Part shown: positions 5,240-38,633 of the stretch, in pieces
How positions within the stretch are numbered: the first letter of the stretch is position 1
How the letters are laid out: every line of letters begins with the position of its first letter
DNA from: Candidatus Atribacteria bacterium
GTDB taxonomy: Bacteria > Atribacterota > Phoenicimicrobiia > Phoenicimicrobiales > Stramentimicrobiaceae
Direction of reading: 5' to 3'
DNA: 63,988 nucleotides
Assembly (NCBI GenBank): GCA_029556475.1
Contig: JAKQEP010000029.1
Span: 1-63,988 of the forward strand
The notes under the pieces: generated by a model
What the model was told of the DNA's origin: nothing
Database searches by the model: none
The model's input: only the letters and a program-made list of their open reading frames with translations
Translations under genes and position numbers: made by a program

Positions 5240-5824
5240 ATGACCACCAGAAATATTGCTTACTATTCTATCTTTATTGCTCTGGCTGTGATTTCAGGCT
5301 ATTTAATTCATTTTCCCATTTTACCCCAGGCTCCCTTTCTATTGTATGACCCGGGACATGTTTTTTTACTGATTGCAGCTTTTAAATTTGGACCCCAGGC
5401 AGGAACAATTATGACTCTGGTCTATGCACTGGTATTTGCCTTGATTACCGGACAGGGTGGACCCTATGGAGCCCTGATGAACTTTCTTTCCACCAGTGCT
5501 TTTGTAATAGTCTCTTCCTGGATTTATTTAAAAAAGCATGACCGAAACGGTGCTATTATTGGGTTGTTCTCAGGCACAATTGCTATGACTGGTATTATGA
5601 TTCCAGCAAATTTGGTTATTACCCCACTATATTTAGCTGTAAATCGGGATATCGTCTGGAAACTTATTTTGCCGGCCATAATCCCCTTTAATCTTTTAAA
5701 AGGGCTCATCAGCAGTGTGTTTGCCCTTTTAGTTTATAAAAAAATATCCTTTCTATTGAACAAGACCGATTACAGTTTTAGTGTGACACATCCTCAAACA
5801 CCCCGGGAGCAAGACAGAAGCTGA
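5240..5824 (+). CDS. ribU: Riboflavin transporter, ECF S-component (RibU/YpaA-like)
   Basis: 194-aa protein with 5-6 predicted TM helices, lying directly behind the FMN riboswitch. The sequence resembles an ECF S component. Confidence 0.75.
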   Translation: MTTRNIAYYSIFIALAVISGYLIHFPILPQAPFLLYDPGHVFLLIAAFKFGPQAGTIMTLVYALVFALITGQGGPYGALMNFLSTSAFVIVSSWIYLKKHDRNGAIIGLFSGTIAMTGIMIPANLVITPLYLAVNRDIVWKLILPAIIPFNLLKGLISSVFALLVYKKISFLLNKTDYSFSVTHPQTPREQDRS

Positions 5825-30213: not shown

Positions 30214-30876
30214 ATGAATAAGAAAAAAATTGCTATTATTGAAACTACTTTGGTTCCATTGCAAGATTTAAGGGAATTATTTTTTGAAATAATTCCTGAA
30301 GCAGAAATTATTAGTTTTGTTGATGACAGCATGTTAAAAGAGGTAATTTCTGCTGGCAAACCAACTCCGAACGTAATTAGGCGCTATTGCTCATACGCGG
30401 TAAATGCTGAAAGTATTGGTAGTAACTTAATATTTAATCAATGCTCATCTGTTGGAGAGGTGGCAGATATAGCTCAACAAATGGTTAATATACCAATTTT
30501 TAAAACTGATTTACCAATGGCTCAAGAAGCAGTTGAAAAAGGTACAAAGATTGGAGTAGTAGCTACACTAAACACCACACTAAATCCTACCAGTAGATTA
30601 ATTCAAAAAGTTGCCGATGAAAAGGGTAAAAAAATTACTATAATACCAAAATTAGCTGAAGGAGCGTTTGAATTGGTCAGCAGGGGTGACAAAGAAGGGC
30701 ATAACAAACTTGTCATTAAAACGATTCAAGAATTAGCTAGCTCTGTAGACATAATAGCTTTAGCCCAGGGAAGTATGGCTGTGCTAATTCCAGACCTAAA
30801 GGGTGTTGATATTCCTGTATTGTCTAGTCCACGATCAGGTGTATTAGGTGCAAAAGCACTCTTAGAAACATTATAA
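30214..30876 (+). CDS. Asp/Glu/hydantoin-racemase-fold protein (function unknown)
   Basis: 220 aa. The blocks IAIIETT..., NQCSSVGE, IGVVATLNTTLNPT, LAQGSMA and VLSSP match the short Asp/Glu racemase family proteins as I recall them. Confidence 0.6.
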   Translation: MNKKKIAIIETTLVPLQDLRELFFEIIPEAEIISFVDDSMLKEVISAGKPTPNVIRRYCSYAVNAESIGSNLIFNQCSSVGEVADIAQQMVNIPIFKTDLPMAQEAVEKGTKIGVVATLNTTLNPTSRLIQKVADEKGKKITIIPKLAEGAFELVSRGDKEGHNKLVIKTIQELASSVDIIALAQGSMAVLIPDLKGVDIPVLSSPRSGVLGAKALLETL

Positions 30877-30899
30877 AATAAAAAGGAGGATCAAAGATT

Positions 30900-31916
30900 A
30901 TGAGTATTAAAGTGGCAGTTGTAGGATATGGAACAATAGGGCAACGTTTAGCTGATGGTGTTGCCTTACAAAAAGATATGGAATTAGTGGGAGTTGTTGA
31001 TGTTGCTCCTACACTAGCTGTAAGAGCTTTGGTAGAAAAGGGAATGCCTTATAACTTCTACTGCGCAGTGCCTGAAAATATTCCTCAATTGGAAGAAATC
31101 GGAGTACCTGTATCAGGCACAATGGATGACATTTTAAAAAAAGTAGATATCGTTTTGGATGCGACTAGTGCTGGGGTTGGTAAAAAGAATAAAGAAATTT
31201 ACCAAAAGTACAATTTACCTGCTGTTTTCCAGGGAGGAGAAAAAAATGAAATTGCTGATGTGTTCTTCCATGGATATGCAAATTACGAAAAAGGATTAGG
31301 GCAGAAATATTTAAAATTAACATCCTGTAATACTACTGGATTAATAAGAGCGGTTGATTGTTTAGATAGAGAAGTAGGTGTAGAAAAAGTGGCCATTACC
31401 ATAATTAGACGAGTTGCTGATCCTGGTGATTACTTTAGAGGATTGACAAATGCCTTGCAGGTAGATAAGGCACCTAGTCATCAAGCAGTTGATTTGATGA
31501 CCATTATGCCTCATATTGATGCTACTGGTATTCTGGTTCATACCCCTGTTACTCATGGCCATATTATTACCATAGTTGCTACTCCTAAGAAAAAAATAAC
31601 CCCTGAAAAAACAATAAATCTTTTTTCTGAACATCCTAGAATTAGAGTTGTTAGTATAGATGAAGGTTTTTTAGGAAATGCTTCATTATTTAAATATGCA
31701 CGTGATTTAGGTAACCCACGTGGTGATATGTACGAAATTGCAGTCTGGAAAGATACAATGGTCACTTCAGGAGATGATATTATGTTTGCAATTAATATAC
31801 CACAAGAAGCGGTTGTTATACCTGAAACCATTGATGCAATTAGAGCTAGCTTAAAAATGCAAATAGATAGGTTAGAGGCAGTTGGTGTTACCAATAAATA
31901 TTTAAATATGAAATAA
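30900..31916 (+). CDS. gap: Glyceraldehyde-3-phosphate dehydrogenase, type II (archaeal type)
   Basis: It aligns along its full length, by eye, with archaeal GAPDH as remembered. Shared blocks are VGYGTIGQR, FQGGEK, catalytic SCNTTGL, RRVADP, PSH, EIAVW and QEAVVIPETIDAIRA. Confidence 0.85.
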   Translation: MSIKVAVVGYGTIGQRLADGVALQKDMELVGVVDVAPTLAVRALVEKGMPYNFYCAVPENIPQLEEIGVPVSGTMDDILKKVDIVLDATSAGVGKKNKEIYQKYNLPAVFQGGEKNEIADVFFHGYANYEKGLGQKYLKLTSCNTTGLIRAVDCLDREVGVEKVAITIIRRVADPGDYFRGLTNALQVDKAPSHQAVDLMTIMPHIDATGILVHTPVTHGHIITIVATPKKKITPEKTINLFSEHPRIRVVSIDEGFLGNASLFKYARDLGNPRGDMYEIAVWKDTMVTSGDDIMFAINIPQEAVVIPETIDAIRASLKMQIDRLEAVGVTNKYLNMK

Positions 31917-31931
31917 AAGAGGTGCATTTAA

Positions 31932-33191
31932 ATGATTGATGGAATATATACTCTTGATGATATCGATGTCGCGGGCAAGACTATCCTTGCCCGCTTTGAT
32001 ATGAACTCCCCCTTGGACTCAAAAACAAAAGAACCAGTAGATATTACTAGAATCGAAGAAAGCATACCCACTATAAAAGAGTTAATAGAAAAAGGAGCAA
32101 AAACAATTGTTTTAATTCATCAGGGAAGTGATATAGAGTATCAAAACTTTGCATCTGTGAGACCTCATTCAAAAATTTTATCAAAATTGTTGAATAAAAC
32201 AGTTGATTATATTGATGATATATGCGGACCAGCTGCCAGAGAAAAAATATGCAATATGAGAAATGGGGAAATTCTGATACTGGAGAATGTAAGATTTATG
32301 GCAGAAGAAATGACTCTATTTGAAACTAAGTTAAATCTTACTCCTGAGGAACAGTCTAAGACTATAGTTGTACAAAAATTATCTCCTTTAGCTCATTTCT
32401 ATTTAAATGACGCATTTTCTGCTGCTCATCGTTCCCAGCCAACCCTCGTTGGCATGGAAGAATTATTACCATCAATAATGGGTAGATTAATGGAAAAAGA
32501 AATTTCTTCATTAGATAGATTGTTAAGAAATCCTGAAAAACCATGCATTTTCATTTTAGGTGGGGCAAAAATACAAGATGCCTTTTTAATGCTTAATACT
32601 ATTTTAGATAATAATGTTGCTGATTTCGTACTCGCAGCAGGGCTCTTTTCTCATGTCATTTTATTAGCCAAGGGTATTCGGTTAGGGAAACCCTCAGAAG
32701 ATTTAATTAAGAAGAAAAATTTAGAAGAATTTATTGAAAAGTCAAAAAGTGTAATAAATAAGTACAGTGATAAGATTAAATTGCCTGTAGATTTTGGTTA
32801 CATTGATTCGGGTAATAGAAAAGAATTGATTATTGAAGAATTACCTTTAAGTAATAATACTTTGATGGACATAGGGAATAAAACTATAAATGAATACGAG
32901 AAAATAATAAGTAAGGCAAAAACCATATTTTTCAACGGTCCTGCTGGAGTCTTTGAAGAAGAAGCGAGTGAATTAGGTACAAAATCTTTGCTAACTGCAA
33001 TTGCCAGTAGTAATGCTTTTTCAGCGGTAGGGGGTGGTGACACCATCACAGCTTTAAATAAATATAGATTATTAAATCGAATGTCTTATGTCAGTACTGG
33101 TGGTGGTGCTTTGATTAGATTTTTAAGTGGAGAAGAATTACCGGTAATTAAAGCTTTGAAAAAGTCTGCAAAAAAGTTTCCTTTGTTATAA
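31932..33191 (+). CDS. pgk: Phosphoglycerate kinase, archaeal-type
   Basis: Blocks RFDMNSPLD, ILENVRF, NDAFSAAHRSQPTLVG, MEKEI, LGGAK, GGGD, STGGGA and GEELPVIKAL resemble archaeal PGKs rather than the bacterial RVDFNVP type. Confidence 0.85.
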   Translation: MIDGIYTLDDIDVAGKTILARFDMNSPLDSKTKEPVDITRIEESIPTIKELIEKGAKTIVLIHQGSDIEYQNFASVRPHSKILSKLLNKTVDYIDDICGPAAREKICNMRNGEILILENVRFMAEEMTLFETKLNLTPEEQSKTIVVQKLSPLAHFYLNDAFSAAHRSQPTLVGMEELLPSIMGRLMEKEISSLDRLLRNPEKPCIFILGGAKIQDAFLMLNTILDNNVADFVLAAGLFSHVILLAKGIRLGKPSEDLIKKKNLEEFIEKSKSVINKYSDKIKLPVDFGYIDSGNRKELIIEELPLSNNTLMDIGNKTINEYEKIISKAKTIFFNGPAGVFEEEASELGTKSLLTAIASSNAFSAVGGGDTITALNKYRLLNRMSYVSTGGGALIRFLSGEELPVIKALKKSAKKFPLL

Positions 33192-33347: not shown

Positions 33348-34625
33348 TTGAAAACTATTAATATTGAACTAAAATACGGTGATACAAGAATCAATTTTTA
33401 TTTGGAAAATAAGAATATTATAAACATATTGACTGCTAACCAGGAAATACCCTTAAAAGAACCTTCAATTAAGCTAGAGAATTTGTTGGAAAACCCAATC
33501 AATAGCCCTTCTCTTACACAATTGATAAAAGATAAAAAAGCCAAAAAGATTCTAATTATAGTTAATGATATTACCAGGCCCACACCATATAACATCCTTC
33601 TGCCCCCACTACTGAAGAAGCTAGAGGAGATTGGCATCAAAAGAGACAATATTACTTTTCTTATTGCCACAGGAGCGCATCGGGGAAATACAGAAGAGGA
33701 AGATATTAAGACATTTGGCAAAGAGCTGGTATCTTCCTACCAATTTGTCAATCATAGCTGTGATGATGACAGATTGATAGACTTAGGCCAATTAAAAAGT
33801 GGTAATCATCTTTTTGTAAACCCCCTGATAGAGGAGGCAGATTTTCTCATTACCACTGGCGTCATTGTCCCTCATTACATAGCAGGTTTCTCAGGTGGCA
33901 GAAAATCAATCCATCCTGGAATCTGTGGGAGAGAGACCATAGAGAAAAATCATTCCCAGATGGTTCACCCCAAAGCTACTACCGGTAATCTTATAGGTAA
34001 TCCGGTGCATGAGGAGATGCTGGAGGCAGCCCAAAGGGTCCATGTCGATTTTAATATCAATACCATTACCGATGAGGATGGTAATATCATAGATATTGTG
34101 GCAGGTGAATTGACAGAATCCTGGCAAAAAGGAGTAGAGATCTCTAAGAATACCTATATCACCCCCATCAAGGAGCAAGCCGATGTAGTCTTTACCAGCG
34201 CAGGAGGATATCCCAAAGATATCAATATCTATCAAGCTCAAAAGGCATTGGATAATGCCTTCCATGCCGTTAAACCTAGTGGTACCATTGTCTTGGTGGC
34301 AGAATGTAAAGAAGGTATCGGTAACACCATCTGCGAACAGTGGATAGAGGAGGCTCATTCCATACGGGATATAGAAGAACGGCTCAAGAGATGTTTTATC
34401 CTAGGAGGTCACAAGGCCTATGCTATTGCCAAGGTAGCCAAAGAAGTAGATATTATTCTCTTATCCTCCCTCAGTAAATATCTGACTAAAAAACTATTCA
34501 TGAAGCCAGCAGAAAATATAAAGCAGGCTGTTAAACTGGTTCATGAAAAACACGGTAAAGATTTTAGAAGCTATATCATACCATCTGGGAATAATGTGCT
34601 TCCCCAAATCCAAAATATAATATAA
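33348..34625 (+). CDS. LarA-family nickel-pincer (NPN)-dependent 2-hydroxyacid racemase/epimerase homolog
   Basis: TTG start. Motifs NDITRPTP, ATGAHRG, PHYIAGFSGGRKS (the NPN-tethering Lys context) and downstream His residues are present. Confidence 0.85.
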   Translation: MKTINIELKYGDTRINFYLENKNIINILTANQEIPLKEPSIKLENLLENPINSPSLTQLIKDKKAKKILIIVNDITRPTPYNILLPPLLKKLEEIGIKRDNITFLIATGAHRGNTEEEDIKTFGKELVSSYQFVNHSCDDDRLIDLGQLKSGNHLFVNPLIEEADFLITTGVIVPHYIAGFSGGRKSIHPGICGRETIEKNHSQMVHPKATTGNLIGNPVHEEMLEAAQRVHVDFNINTITDEDGNIIDIVAGELTESWQKGVEISKNTYITPIKEQADVVFTSAGGYPKDINIYQAQKALDNAFHAVKPSGTIVLVAECKEGIGNTICEQWIEEAHSIRDIEERLKRCFILGGHKAYAIAKVAKEVDIILLSSLSKYLTKKLFMKPAENIKQAVKLVHEKHGKDFRSYIIPSGNNVLPQIQNII

Positions 34626-34899
34626 TATTATTTTTCTACATCTATTTCCCTTAACTACTTGCAATAGTTACAATGTATTTTACAAGTAATTCTTAACATC
34701 ATTGAAACAAAAAAATATAGCCCGCCCTACCTTATTTAAAAATAATAAGAAAAATGATCAGAATTTTTTAAAAAGATTTGTAAAAACATCGTAAGAAAAT
34801 CTGTAAGAGTTTTAAAAAAGCGAATAGTTAATTTGTTATTAGCTATTTCAAATTTCTGAATATATTTATTGATTTTTTTACAATTTGTGTTATTATAAA

Positions 34900-34914
34900 T
34901 GTATAATGTATACA
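34900..34914 (+). promoter_or_regulatory. Candidate GntR/FadR-type operator overlapping a TATAAT box
   Basis: TGTATA-ATG-TATACA is a 6-3-6 inverted repeat. TATAAT lies at 34902-34907, and TTTACA lies 19 nt upstream. Confidence 0.3.
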
Positions 34915-34976
34915 ATCAAACATAATAATCTTTATGACTTTATAATTAATTTCCTATAAAATAAGGTTTTTTTAAT

Positions 34977-35651
34977 ATGGCAAGATTCCCCATGATTAAA
35001 AACCATGAATTATTGAGCCAGAAAGTTTATCGTATTATTAAACGAGATATCATTCAAGGAAAATTATCCTCTGATACCCGATTATATGAAGAGAAGATTG
35101 CAGAACAAATGAACATTAGTCGAACACCTGTTAGAGAAGCACTTAGATCATTATCTGCTGAGGGATTTGTCAAACTTATTCCAAATATTGGCATTGTTGT
35201 AAACCATATTTCCCCTAAAGACTTACTAGATATTCTAAATATTAGACAAGAATTAGAAACTTATGCCATTTGCCTTGCTGCTCAAAAAATTAATGAGAAA
35301 GATATTGATAATTTGAATGTGATTATTCAGCAAATGGAAAGGGCGGTATTTACCAATAATACATTGCTTTTTAATAATCTAAATTTAGAATACCACAGAA
35401 ATATTATCTTCATTTCTAACAATAATAAATTAATAGAAATATGTGATAATTTACATCAACAATCTGAACGCTGGATTAAATCTATAGTAGTTAAAGAACG
35501 TTTAATGCATAGCCTTCAAGAACATGTAGAAATATATAATAGTCTTAAGAAAAAAGATGTTGATGGAGCAAAAAAAGCAATGAGTATACATATAAGCAAT
35601 ATTATTAAAAATATCTTTAAAACGGATTTAAAGGAGAGAACAGAACAATGA
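34977..35651 (+). CDS. GntR-family (FadR/FCD subfamily) transcriptional regulator
   Basis: HTH ISRTPVREALRSLSAEGFV followed by an all-helical FCD-like C-terminal domain. Confidence 0.85.
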   Translation: MARFPMIKNHELLSQKVYRIIKRDIIQGKLSSDTRLYEEKIAEQMNISRTPVREALRSLSAEGFVKLIPNIGIVVNHISPKDLLDILNIRQELETYAICLAAQKINEKDIDNLNVIIQQMERAVFTNNTLLFNNLNLEYHRNIIFISNNNKLIEICDNLHQQSERWIKSIVVKERLMHSLQEHVEIYNSLKKKDVDGAKKAMSIHISNIIKNIFKTDLKERTEQ

Positions 35652-36493
35652 GAAAAATTGAAGCTAGAGAGATTTCTGAAAAAGTAAAGAACCTGTTCCT
35701 GGAAGCCAATTTCAATATAGGCAAAGACGTTTTAGAAGCATTGGAAAAAGCTCTTGAGAAAGAAGAGTCAAAAGTTGGGAAAGATGCTTTGAAAATGATT
35801 ATTGATAATAACCGTTTAGCATCAACAGAAAAACTTGCCATCTGTCAGGATACCGGTCTGGCAGTATTATTCATAGAAGTGGGTCAGGAAGCATGTATTA
35901 TTAACGGAAACTATGTAGAGGCAATAAATAAAGGAGTAGAGGCAGCATACCAAGAAGGATATCTAAGAAAATCAGTAGTTGATGACCCCGTTTTTGATCG
36001 GAAAAATACTAAAACCAATACCCCGGCTTTTATCTATACTGATATTATCCCTGGAGATAGAATTAAAATAACAGTTCTACCCAAGGGTTTTGGAAGCGAG
36101 AATATGAGTGGACTGGCTATGCTGACCGCTGCGCATGGTGCTAAGGGTATAATGGATTTTATTGTGGATACTGTAAGAAAAGCAGGGCCAAACCCCTGTC
36201 CGCCAACTATTGTTGGAGTAGGTATCGGTGGAACTGCGGACAAAGCAATGGTAATAGCCAAAAAAGCTACTGCCCGCCCTATTGGAGAGTATAATGCTAA
36301 TCCTAAATATGCTCAGATGGAAAAGGAGACCCTTGAGAGAATAAATAAATTGGGGATAGGACCAGCCGGCTTGGGGGGTAATACCACATCCCTGGCAGTA
36401 CATATTGATTATCTACCAACACATATTGCAGGTATGCCAGTGGCAGTAAATATATGCTGTCATGCTGCACGTCATGCTTCAGGAGAAATATAA
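35648..36493 (+). CDS. Class I Fe-S hydro-lyase alpha subunit (fumarate hydratase / L(+)-tartrate dehydratase type)
   Basis: CQDTG motif, other conserved Cys residues and a GGTADK block. It overlaps the GntR gene by 4 nt. Confidence 0.85.
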   Translation: MRKIEAREISEKVKNLFLEANFNIGKDVLEALEKALEKEESKVGKDALKMIIDNNRLASTEKLAICQDTGLAVLFIEVGQEACIINGNYVEAINKGVEAAYQEGYLRKSVVDDPVFDRKNTKTNTPAFIYTDIIPGDRIKITVLPKGFGSENMSGLAMLTAAHGAKGIMDFIVDTVRKAGPNPCPPTIVGVGIGGTADKAMVIAKKATARPIGEYNANPKYAQMEKETLERINKLGIGPAGLGGNTTSLAVHIDYLPTHIAGMPVAVNICCHAARHASGEI

Positions 36494-36526
36494 TTTATTG
36501 AATATTACTGGAAGGAGAATTAATTA

Positions 36527-37087
36527 ATGAGTGAAGAAATTAAGATTACTACCCCTCTGGATGAATCTATTGTATTAAAATTAAAAGCAGGTGATTCAGT
36601 TAAAATAACGGGAAATATCTATACCGGTAGGGATGCTGCCCACAAGAGATTATATGAGTTGATTGAGGAAGGGAAAGACCTGCCTTTTTCACTGGAAGGT
36701 CAAATAATTTATTATGTAGGACCTGCGCCCGCCAAACCGGGATATGCCTGTGGTCCTGCAGGTCCTACTACCAGTTACCGTATGGACCCTTATACTACAG
36801 CTTTATTGGAAAAAGGGCTTAAAGGGATGATTGGTAAAGGATTGCGTTCTAAAGAAGTAATTGAAAGTATGAAGAAGAATAAGGCTGTATATTTTGCAGC
36901 CGTAGGCGGAGCTGCAGCTTTAATTGCTAAAACTATTAAAAAATCAGAGGTGATTGCTTATTCTGACCTGGGAGCAGAAGCCATACACCGCTATTATGTG
37001 GAGGATTTCCCGGCTATTGTTTGTATCGATGCTTATGGGAACAATTTATATAAAAGTGAACCGCCTAAATATAGAAAAGAATTATAA
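36527..37087 (+). CDS. Class I Fe-S hydro-lyase beta subunit
   Basis: Blocks GNIYTGRDAAHKRL and GPTTSYRMD are typical of FumB/TtdB. Confidence 0.85.
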   Translation: MSEEIKITTPLDESIVLKLKAGDSVKITGNIYTGRDAAHKRLYELIEEGKDLPFSLEGQIIYYVGPAPAKPGYACGPAGPTTSYRMDPYTTALLEKGLKGMIGKGLRSKEVIESMKKNKAVYFAAVGGAAALIAKTIKKSEVIAYSDLGAEAIHRYYVEDFPAIVCIDAYGNNLYKSEPPKYRKEL

Positions 37088-37123
37088 ATAAAATATATTA
37101 TAAAAATTAAAAAGGAGATTAAA

Positions 37124-38299
37124 ATGGACATAAACCAAGAAGCTTTAAAACTGCACAGCGAAAATAGAGGAAAGATTGAGGTAGTTAGCAAGACCAAAAT
37201 TAAAGATATGCATGATCTTGCTGTAGTCTATACCCCCGGAGTAGCTGAACCTTGCCGCAAAATCCATCAGAATGTTTCAGATGTCTATACCTACACTGTC
37301 AAGGGTAATATGGTAGCAGTAATATCAGATGGAACAGCAGTGCTGGGACTGGGAGATATTGGTCCTGAGGCTGCCATTCCGGTTATGGAAGGAAAGGCAG
37401 TGCTCTTTAAATATTTTGGTGGTGTCGATGCCTTCCCAATATGCCTGGCTACTAAAGATACGGATGAGATCGTAGAGACGGTGACCCGGATTGCTCCGGT
37501 ATTTGGAGGAATTAACTTGGAGGATATTAGTGCTCCCCGTTGTTTTGAAATAGAGAAGAGATTAAAAGAAACGCTCGACATCCCGGTCTTCCATGATGAT
37601 CAGCATGGAACTGCTGTAGTAGTCCTCTCCGGAGTTATTAATGCTTTAAAATTGGCCAACAAGAAGATGGAAGAGGTTAAAATGGTGGTTAACGGTGCCG
37701 GAGCTGCTTCCATTGCAGTAGCTAAATTCTTACTATCTGCCGGTGCTCAAAATATCATCCTCTGTGATTCAAGGGGTATAGTATATGAGGGACGTACTGA
37801 AAATATGAATTCAGCCAAAGAAGAAATGGCAAAGCTAACCAATAAAGATAAGGTAAAGGGCAACCTTGCCGATGCCCTGGTAGGTGCTGATCTATTTTTG
37901 GGATTGTCCGGTCCCAATCTGGTTACCTCAGAGATGGTCAAAAGAATGGCTCATGATCCCATTGTAATTGCCATGGCTAATCCCATACCTGAGATTTACC
38001 CTGATGAAGCCAGAGCCGGTGGTGCCCGTATCATCGCTACTGGCCGTTCCGACTTCCCCAACCAGGTCAACAATTGTTTGGGATTCCCTGCTATCTTCAA
38101 AGGTGCCTTAAAAGTGAGAGCGAGTGAAATTAACGAAGAGATGAAGCTGGCAGCAGCCCATGCCATTGCTTCGGTAATTCCGGATAATGAACTCAGTGAG
38201 ACTAACTTCATTCCCAATGTTTTCCATCCGGAGGTAATGGAGAAAGAAGCTGAAGCAGTGGCTCAAGCAGCAAGGGATACCGGGGTAGCAAGGATATAG
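37124..38299 (+). CDS. NAD(P)-dependent malic enzyme (short form)
   Basis: Motifs VYTPGVA, GLGDIGP, FHDDQHGTA, NGAGAA and ANPIPE. Confidence 0.9.
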   Translation: MDINQEALKLHSENRGKIEVVSKTKIKDMHDLAVVYTPGVAEPCRKIHQNVSDVYTYTVKGNMVAVISDGTAVLGLGDIGPEAAIPVMEGKAVLFKYFGGVDAFPICLATKDTDEIVETVTRIAPVFGGINLEDISAPRCFEIEKRLKETLDIPVFHDDQHGTAVVVLSGVINALKLANKKMEEVKMVVNGAGAASIAVAKFLLSAGAQNIILCDSRGIVYEGRTENMNSAKEEMAKLTNKDKVKGNLADALVGADLFLGLSGPNLVTSEMVKRMAHDPIVIAMANPIPEIYPDEARAGGARIIATGRSDFPNQVNNCLGFPAIFKGALKVRASEINEEMKLAAAHAIASVIPDNELSETNFIPNVFHPEVMEKEAEAVAQAARDTGVARI

Positions 38300-38311: not shown

Positions 38312-38340
38312 TTGACAAGATAATAAATAGAATTTATAAT
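38312..38340 (+). promoter_or_regulatory. Consensus sigma-70-type promoter for the T-box leader
   Basis: TTGACA (38312-38317), a 17-nt spacer, then TATAAT (38335-38340). Confidence 0.6.
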
Positions 38341-38384
38341 ATCAAAAAGAAATAAAATATTAAATAGGATAAAAATAAATAAAA

Positions 38385-38633
38385 TTTTTGAGAAGAAGAG
38401 TAAATCCTTGTTTGACATACAGAGAGCCGTTAAAGGTGAAAAGACGGTTGCAAACCTGATTGAAGTCCGGCTTCTCTTGAAAGACAATTTGACCTGGATA
38501 TTTAAAATATAATTTTATGAATATTTTTATTTTGAATAGAGGATAGAATTTTCTATTAAATTAGGGTGGCACCACGTGAATAAACTCTCGTCCCTAAGGC
38601 ATTGAACAATTGCCAGAAGACGAGAGTTTTTTT
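38385..38633 (+). promoter_or_regulatory. T-box leader (transcription attenuation), probable Ser specifier
   Basis: The Stem I base TGAGAAGAAGAGTA (K-turn and S-turn) pairs with CTTCTC at 38471-38476. An AGAGA element is present. The T-box sequence AAATTAGGGTGGCACCACG lies at 38558-38576. The terminator pairs AAACTCTCGTC with GACGAGAGTTT and is followed by a T-run. The antiterminator pairs TTAGGG with CCCTAA. The Specifier-loop 3' strand is GAAG-TCC-GG. The UGGC bulge implies a G73 discriminator. Confidence 0.85.

Follow-up and report, generated by a model that had tools for sequence, protein, structure and literature searches.

Which reaction would be catalyzed by a homolog of lactate racemase that stands beside genes of C4-dicarboxylate metabolism, and how would this enzyme be supplied with its cofactor if the known genes for cofactor synthesis are not found? 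Both questions are raised by a contig of Candidatus Atribacteria bacterium (assembly GCA_029556475.1, contig JAKQEP010000029.1), whose 63,988 nucleotides are called the window here. The contig is part of a 2.03-Mb assembly of 173 contigs that is 84% complete. At 33348-34625 it carries an intact open reading frame for a protein of the LarA superfamily, whose enzymes use as their cofactor a nickel-pincer nucleotide (NPN) made with LarB, LarC and LarE. A gntR-fumAB-maeA operon follows. An initial annotation, made from the letters of this DNA, had proposed a racemase of malate or another C4 2-hydroxy acid that feeds the operon. Our analysis favors a LarAH6 (Mar2-type) D/L-malate racemase feeding a fumarase/malic enzyme operon, to which we assign a probability of roughly 0.7. 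The answer to the second question is more tentative and involves NPN taken from neighboring organisms or made by an unrecognized pathway.

Assignment of the LarA homolog

The protein was placed with NCBIfam models and a search of all PDB sequences. Its gene begins with a TTG codon preceded by a GGAGAGG Shine-Dalgarno sequence, and the product has the expected two-domain Pfam architecture (Lar_N, PF09861, 216 bits; LarA_C, PF21113, 74 bits). NCBIfam provides separate equivalog models for several characterized groups of LarA homologs, and among these the protein passes LarAH6 only. Its score against the LarAH6 nickel-dependent malate racemase model (NF052593) is 530.9 bits with a cut-off of 500; 17 Atribacterota proteins, this one included, match the model at 510-575 bits. 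The scores remain below the cut-offs of the sister equivalogs LarAH10 (388.6 bits, cut-off 540) and LarAH5 (376.2 bits, cut-off 462) and of the lactate racemase LarA (NF033504; 368.2 bits, cut-off 460). The top PDB match is the malate racemase Mar2 (6D6Z; 296.6 bits, E 2.6e-87, query residues 5-422), and the lactate racemases rank after it at 237.8 and about 211 bits. A malate-type rather than a lactate-type enzyme, as initially proposed, is upheld by these comparisons.

The active-site residues point in the same direction. The GFSGGRKS motif (residues 180-187) and the TGAHRG block (residues 108-113) are both kept, as had been noted. The NPN-binding residues of Lactiplantibacillus plantarum LarA, Arg75, Lys184 and His200, have their equivalents in R77, K186 and H202, and the catalytic pair His108/His174 and Lys298 have theirs in H111, H176 and K299. 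Equivalents of Tyr294 and Gln295 are also present, and Y295 and Q296 are further key residues of the protein. Of the malate signature (PMC7583248), the protein has Y177 directly behind the second catalytic histidine, in a loop whose next residue is expected to be basic or phenylalanine, Q298 before the catalytic K299, and G354-H355-K356 (the GHK motif, in helix 14). All of these residues (R77, H111, H176, Y177, K186, H202, Y295, Q296, Q298, K299 and GHK) are invariant in 118 homologs with at least 60% identity. In Mar2 the corresponding set comprises R74, K181 and H197 for NPN, Y172 and K173 in the loop, Q293 before the catalytic lysine, and K351 in GHK (PMC7583248). The evidence supports a Mar2-type LarAH6 family member and not a lactate racemase.

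Comparison with characterized enzymes places the protein nearest to Mar2 of Thermoanaerobacterium thermosaccharolyticum (PDB 6D6Z, 7S91; Desguin 2020, PMC7583248). The two belong to the same equivalog, align from end to end, and share the arginine, lysine and histidine that bind NPN, both catalytic histidines, the YQxQK block and the GHK motif, with malic enzyme as a typical neighbor of each. In contrast to Mar2, the protein occurs in a lineage without larB, larC and larE, and the published context table does not list its pairing with a FadR-type GntR regulon and a class I fumarase. L. plantarum LarA (PDB 5HUQ, 6C1W) shares its fold, its two domains and presumably its mechanism with the protein of the window, but the latter differs from it in pocket residues of the polar or charged kind found in malate racemases and in the lack of a larBCE operon. 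Mar1/LarAH5 of Desulfitobacterium hafniense and LarAH62 of Sporomusa termitida are malate racemases with the GHK motif and a promiscuous tartrate epimerization activity; by its LarAH5 score the protein falls outside the Mar1 equivalog, which is a different phylogenetic group.

A second LarA-superfamily gene is present in the same genome, on another contig (C38, L038:3190-4470, plus strand, 426 aa). It lies between genes for 6-phosphogluconate dehydrogenase and pyrophosphate-dependent phosphofructokinase, and its best NCBIfam match, to the LarAH18 model for a putative hexonate epimerase, scores 187 bits and misses the cut-off of 500 by a wide margin. Almost every Atribacterota genome has a homolog of this type, regardless of larBCE.

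The neighboring operon and its predicted operator

The FadR-type GntR regulator, the two-subunit class I hydro-lyase and the malic enzyme named in the initial annotation are all recovered by Pfam and NCBIfam searches (Table 1). The larA and gntR genes are separated by a spacer of 351 nt, and the fumarase alpha gene shares its first 4 nt with the end of gntR. Both hydro-lyase subunits exceed the cut-offs of fumarase equivalogs and remain below those of L-tartrate dehydratase (TtdA, 165 bits with a cut-off of 365; TtdB, 101 bits with a cut-off of 264). The enzyme is a fumarase by these models. The GntR protein reaches no equivalog cut-off, the best being phnR_burk at 113 bits (cut-off 271). Malic enzyme converts L-malate to pyruvate and CO2.

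Table 1. Features at and around the LarA homolog, in window positions
Feature	Position	Strand	Evidence or remark
ECF-transporter (energy-coupling factor) S-component	5240..5767	+	riboflavin-type Pfam
Asp/Glu-racemase-fold gene, archaeal type II GAPDH-like gene and PGK-like gene	30214..33191	+	GAPDH-like: NCBIfam 403 bits
LarAH6/Mar2-family NPN-dependent malate racemase homolog	33348..34625	+	425 aa; NF052593, Pfam and PDB 6D6Z match
Predicted GntR operator TGTATAATGTATACA	34900..34914	+	contains the extended -10 element (TGTATAAT) of the promoter for gntR-fumAB-maeA
FadR-subfamily GntR regulator, winged helix-turn-helix plus FCD	34977..35651	+	Pfam GntR 61.8 bits, FCD 79.6 bits
Class I (Fe-S) fumarate hydratase, alpha subunit	35648..36493	+	PRK06246 395 bits, cut-off 276
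Class I fumarate hydratase, beta subunit	36527..37087	+	PRK06842 289 bits, cut-off 238; Pfam Fumerase_C
Short-form malic enzyme	37124..38299	+	Pfam malic and Malic_M; NCBIfam malic-enzyme subfamily model E 1.5e-116
Perfect sigma-70 promoter TTGACA-17-TATAAT	38312..38340	+	directly 3' of the malic enzyme gene
T-box leader	38379..38598	+	Rfam 88.4 bits, slightly below the gathering score of 93

A GntR site in front of the operon had been suggested, and conservation in two families supports it as a predicted operator. The comparison covered 86 species genomes of Atribacterota in families f1-f7, where f1 is the family of the bacterium itself and f2 its sister family. Family f1 is represented by 22 species-level genomes in 10 genera; all are metagenome-assembled drafts, and nine are 90-100% complete. 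The predicted operator TGTATAATGTATACA lies 63 nt before the gntR start. As a palindrome alone it is within chance in this AT-rich window, since at least one match with no more than one mismatch occurred in 25 of 100 shuffles. Among the 52 genomes of f1 and f2, 16 contain its 13-nt core, with 22 occurrences in all, compared with a single occurrence of the reversed control; the core was not found in families f3-f7. At 10 of the 16 loci fetched, the window's own included, a GntR ortholog follows the core at a distance of 60-100 nt, and the gene after those orthologs is FumA, a FumA paralog or DctP where it falls within the fetched stretch. In the congeneric genome G007 the TRAP/TAXI operon beside LarAH6 has a second copy in front of it. 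We judge the operator to be real because the exact 15-mer occurs once in the 2.03-Mb genome, its core recurs in both families, and it sits upstream of GntR orthologs. A near-match elsewhere in the genome (contig C21:1745) falls within coding sequence and was set aside as probably due to chance.

GntR proteins of the FadR subfamily with an FCD domain, such as LldR, GlcC and PdhR, share the winged helix-turn-helix and FCD architecture of the regulator. Their operators are palindromes with a GT...AC core over the promoter, and they are the autoregulated first genes of carboxylate-catabolic operons, which is the arrangement seen in the window; unlike them, the regulator here reaches the cut-off of no equivalog. 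It is probably autoregulated, and the pattern is that of a FadR-type repressor of a C4-dicarboxylate regulon, from which we infer repression, operator binding and an effector.

The promoter and T-box leader downstream of the malic enzyme gene start the next unit and mark the end of gntR-fumAB-maeA. In a simple terminator scan, neither larA nor the PGK-like gene was followed by a terminator, so the limits of the transcription units around larA are putative. An Rfam search returned the downstream T-box and no RNA element between larA and gntR, and alignment of the spacer with two congeners revealed no conserved block besides the operator. Upstream, a gap of 156 nt separates larA from the PGK-like gene. 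A link of the GAPDH/PGK pair to LarAH6 was considered and dropped, as the pair is absent next to LarAH6 at all 13 other loci; the adjacency is specific to this genome.

Gene context in related genomes

The link between LarAH6 and fumarase or malic enzyme recurs in relatives and is stronger in Atribacterota than in the published context. A tight operon of GntR, FumA, FumB, malic enzyme and LarAH6 is found in genome G024 of family f2, FumA-FumB-LarAH6 in G031, and malic enzyme-LarAH6 in G016. In the congener G008, LarAH6 is followed by a spacer and FumA-FumB. In the congener G007 and three metagenome contigs, LarAH6 is followed by a TRAP/TAXI transporter, an iron-containing alcohol dehydrogenase, a PrpD-like protein, a short-chain dehydrogenase/reductase and an unknown gene, and then by GntR-Fumerase. 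In the published survey, malic enzyme was the top neighbor of group 6, at 6 of 41, and the listed neighbors include no larB, larC or larE (Supplementary Table S1 in PMC7583248). A LarAH6 gene unlinked to larBCE is therefore normal for this group.

The G007-type contigs carry an 8-kb module (L056, 11817-19375) inserted between LarAH6 and GntR-Fumerase, with an operator copy in front. It encodes a fused TRAP DctQM protein, a TAXI binding protein, the alcohol dehydrogenase and the short-chain dehydrogenase/reductase. Its PrpD/MmgE-family protein scores far below the PrpD cut-offs, and a 283-aa protein has no Pfam or NCBIfam match. The ECF S-component gene listed in Table 1 lies 4-8 kb upstream of LarAH6 in G001, G007, G008 and G016 and 28 kb upstream in the window. 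This spacing suggests an older gene order that was interrupted by insertion of the catabolic island at 13-33 kb of the window.

Proposed role and points against it

By homology, the LarAH6 enzyme would interconvert D- and L-malate by the proton-coupled hydride transfer of the LarA family. NPN would be held by R77, K186 and H202, with H111 and H176 as the acid/base pair. The 2-hydroxy-carboxylate would be held by Y295, Q296 and K299, and its second carboxylate would be bound by Q298 and by K356 of the GHK motif. L-malate would be the shared substrate of fumarase, which interconverts it with fumarate, and of malic enzyme, which yields pyruvate. D-malate, and perhaps tartrate isomers, would enter this C4 node via the racemase. 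Transcription of the operon would start at a promoter with its -10 element embedded in the operator of the operon's own GntR protein, and the racemase would be loaded in vivo with NPN by a non-canonical route, either uptake from neighbors or an unknown pathway. That malate is the substrate, that flux runs this way, that GntR represses the operon and that NPN is loaded in vivo are inferences.

The initial idea of a C4 racemase feeding the operon is strengthened by the family placement, the recurrent gene link and the predicted operator. The idea is not new, however, since both the family and the reasoning from malic enzyme neighbors have been published (PMC7583248); a nearby malic enzyme was the very clue that led to Mar2 as a malate racemase (PMC7583248). 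The absence of larBCE also counts against it.

Several further observations weigh against a malate racemase at this locus. The NF052593 score exceeds the equivalog cut-off by just 31 bits. Residue 178 is isoleucine, and the clade has phenylalanine (66) or isoleucine (47) where Mar2 has Lys173, a residue that its authors implicated in substrate binding (PMC7583248). The sequence logo of group 6 carries phenylalanine at this loop position (PMC7583248), so the difference is within-group variation, which may still shift specificity. No operator is present upstream of larA itself in the window. The ortholog in the congener G005, 74% identical, is the last gene of a cluster for tartrate metabolism (L030, contig C20, 545-9191) that comprises TtdA-TtdB, DctP-DctQ-DctM, a tartrate-dehydrogenase-like protein and a PrpB/PEP-mutase-family protein. 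TtdA (498 bits, cut-off 365) and TtdB (360 bits, cut-off 264) of that cluster are both above their cut-offs for L-tartrate dehydratase, and the tartrate-dehydrogenase-like protein is below its own (419 bits, cut-off 470). Finally, profile searches gave no larB, larC or larE above cut-off in the window or in the genome to which it belongs, and each of the three genes is found in 0 of the 22 genomes of family f1.

Absence of larB, larC and larE

The searches used NF033503 for LarB, PF01969 and TIGR00299 for LarC, and TIGR00268 for LarE. The lack of these genes in the window, already stated in the initial annotation, thus extends to the whole assembly. A tblastn search of the genome with LarE, LarB and LarC of the sister family returned weak PP-loop matches only, namely MnmA and an unassigned PP-loop ATPase. 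The weak match to the LarB model in this genome is PurE (161 aa). The distribution of LarC across the phylum is uneven: it is found in 0 of 22 genomes in f1, 21 of 30 in f2, 11 of 11 in f3, 15 of 17 in f4, 1 of 1 in f5, 2 of 3 in f6 and 0 of 2 in f7. LarB and LarE were searched for in 41 genomes, all from f1 or f2, and mirror LarC there (f1, 0/22; f2, 13-14/19). Where present, the genes sit together on ordinary contigs as a larE-larB-larC operon. As no larB, larC or larE is found in the genome or in the family, the holo-enzyme lacks its canonical route of formation.

Two candidate substitutes were examined and rejected. The PP-loop ATPase (contig C134, L002:1399-2406, plus strand, 335 aa) reaches no NCBIfam cut-off and has weak matches of 39-45 bits to GMP synthase, NAD synthase and LarE. 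It occurs in 80 of the 86 genomes irrespective of larE and was discarded as a LarE replacement. The ECF S-component near LarAH6 was considered as an NPN importer; it is phylum-wide (74/86) and not specific to lineages that lack larBCE.

A genome without larBCE had been named in the initial annotation as grounds for giving up the proposed function, and on present data this is the situation in the genome itself and in its 21 relatives in f1. We do not take it as refuting function because LarAH6 is intact, its NPN-binding and catalytic residues are kept, and its ratio of nonsynonymous to synonymous divergence (dN/dS) is about 0.03-0.2. The papers covered, which do not include the 2014 survey, discuss larBCE without larA and not lineages that keep LarA without NPN synthesis.

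Maintenance of LarAH6 in the family

Full-length, stop-free LarAH6 genes above cut-off are present in 11 genomes of f1, that of the window included. More broadly, 19 of the 21 relatives in f1 have 1-5 Lar_N genes each, no fewer than lineages that bear larBCE. The Nei-Gojobori dN/dS is 0.20 at a dS of 0.20 for the least diverged pair (G001-G007) and 0.03-0.15 for the other f1 pairs, in which dS is saturated. The LarAH6 genes of f1 are under purifying selection. In a midpoint-rooted tree, those of genera g1, g4, g7 and g9 form one clade, which is consistent with vertical descent. The exception is LarAH6 of G021 (f1, genus g10; contig C69, L026:5211-6458), which shares 92% protein identity with the G037 copy (f2, genus g15; contig C15, L036:1712-2806) at a dS of 0.31; other pairs between families are about 60-75% identical. 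This similarity probably reflects a recent horizontal transfer, and both genomes are without larBCE. LarA fragments with stop codons also exist in the group, including in larBCE-positive genomes. Because the gene is conserved, under purifying selection and of a single clade, LarAH6 has been kept while f1 diversified, in a family that lacks the only known cofactor route.

An explanation that we hold tentatively, at a little less than even odds, is that f1 has lost larB, larC and larE yet keeps 1-5 LarA enzymes per genome under selection as NPN auxotrophs. These organisms would take NPN from neighbors, for example from larBCE-bearing sister Atribacterota or methanogens, or would use an unrecognized pathway. 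For the missing genes, uptake from the community ranks as the likeliest explanation, followed by an unknown route, an inactive relic and genes that were missed.

Alternative explanations

The physiological substrate could be tartrate or another C4/C5 2-hydroxy-dicarboxylate, with D- or meso-tartrate epimerized to the isomer on which L-tartrate dehydratase or tartrate dehydrogenase acts. Mar1, Mar2 and LarAH62 show promiscuous C2-epimerization of tartrate (PMC11770544), and the isoleucine or phenylalanine of the loop, in place of Lys173 of Mar2, would fit such a change. Since the G005 ortholog closes a tartrate cluster and characterized malate racemases epimerize tartrate weakly, tartrate has to be taken seriously as the substrate of some members of the clade. 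At the locus in the window it is unlikely: the hydro-lyase there passes the fumarase models and fails those of tartrate dehydratase, malic enzyme is the recurrent partner, and the protein passes the malate racemase equivalog. A lactate racemase, as the gene is annotated publicly, has next to no probability. Homologs that are 60-81% identical carry the database name 'nickel-dependent lactate racemase'; those at 70-74% sit on contigs of congeneric genomes with the NCBI label Atribacterota. The score against the LarA equivalog is too low, however, no lactate genes lie nearby, and the lactate-type pocket (a Phe-Phe loop, Val297 and Trp358) is replaced by Tyr-Ile, Gln and Lys. The public name is a routine misannotation of a probable malate racemase of the LarAH6 type.

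The absence of larBCE invites two other readings. The protein could be an apo-protein relic that is no longer activated by NPN after the loss of these genes and is either decaying or in an NPN-free role. A relic would fit with the failure to find larB, larC or larE in any of the 22 f1 genomes, nine of them at least 90% complete, and with the fragments that carry stop codons. Such fragments also occur in larBCE-positive genomes, however, and intact orthologs are present in at least 11 f1 genomes, with invariant NPN-binding and catalytic residues, a low dN/dS, four genera in a single clade and no depletion of LarA homologs relative to larBCE-bearing lineages. We regard a relic as quite improbable. 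Even less credible is an ordinary malate racemase, normally supplied with cofactor, whose larBCE genes escaped notice because of extreme divergence or of gaps in assembly or binning. The incompleteness of the genome and the draft state of all f1 assemblies would allow for this, but the same searches recover the genes in f2-f4, nine f1 genomes are 90-100% complete, and the weak matches obtained resolve to MnmA, the PP-loop ATPase and PurE.

Implications

A D/L-malate racemase of the Mar2 type is thus the preferred reading of this locus. The context is new to LarAH6: a regulon of fumarase, malic enzyme and GntR with a defined predicted operator, in an uncultured subsurface phylum. If the pattern of LarA enzymes without larBCE holds in closed genomes, it would mean that a labile organometallic cofactor is exchanged in anoxic communities or that a biosynthetic route is missing from the current picture. 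If true, either NPN salvage or a route without LarB, LarC and LarE would here be seen for the first time. The genomes of family f1 provide a concrete set in which an NPN transporter can be sought.

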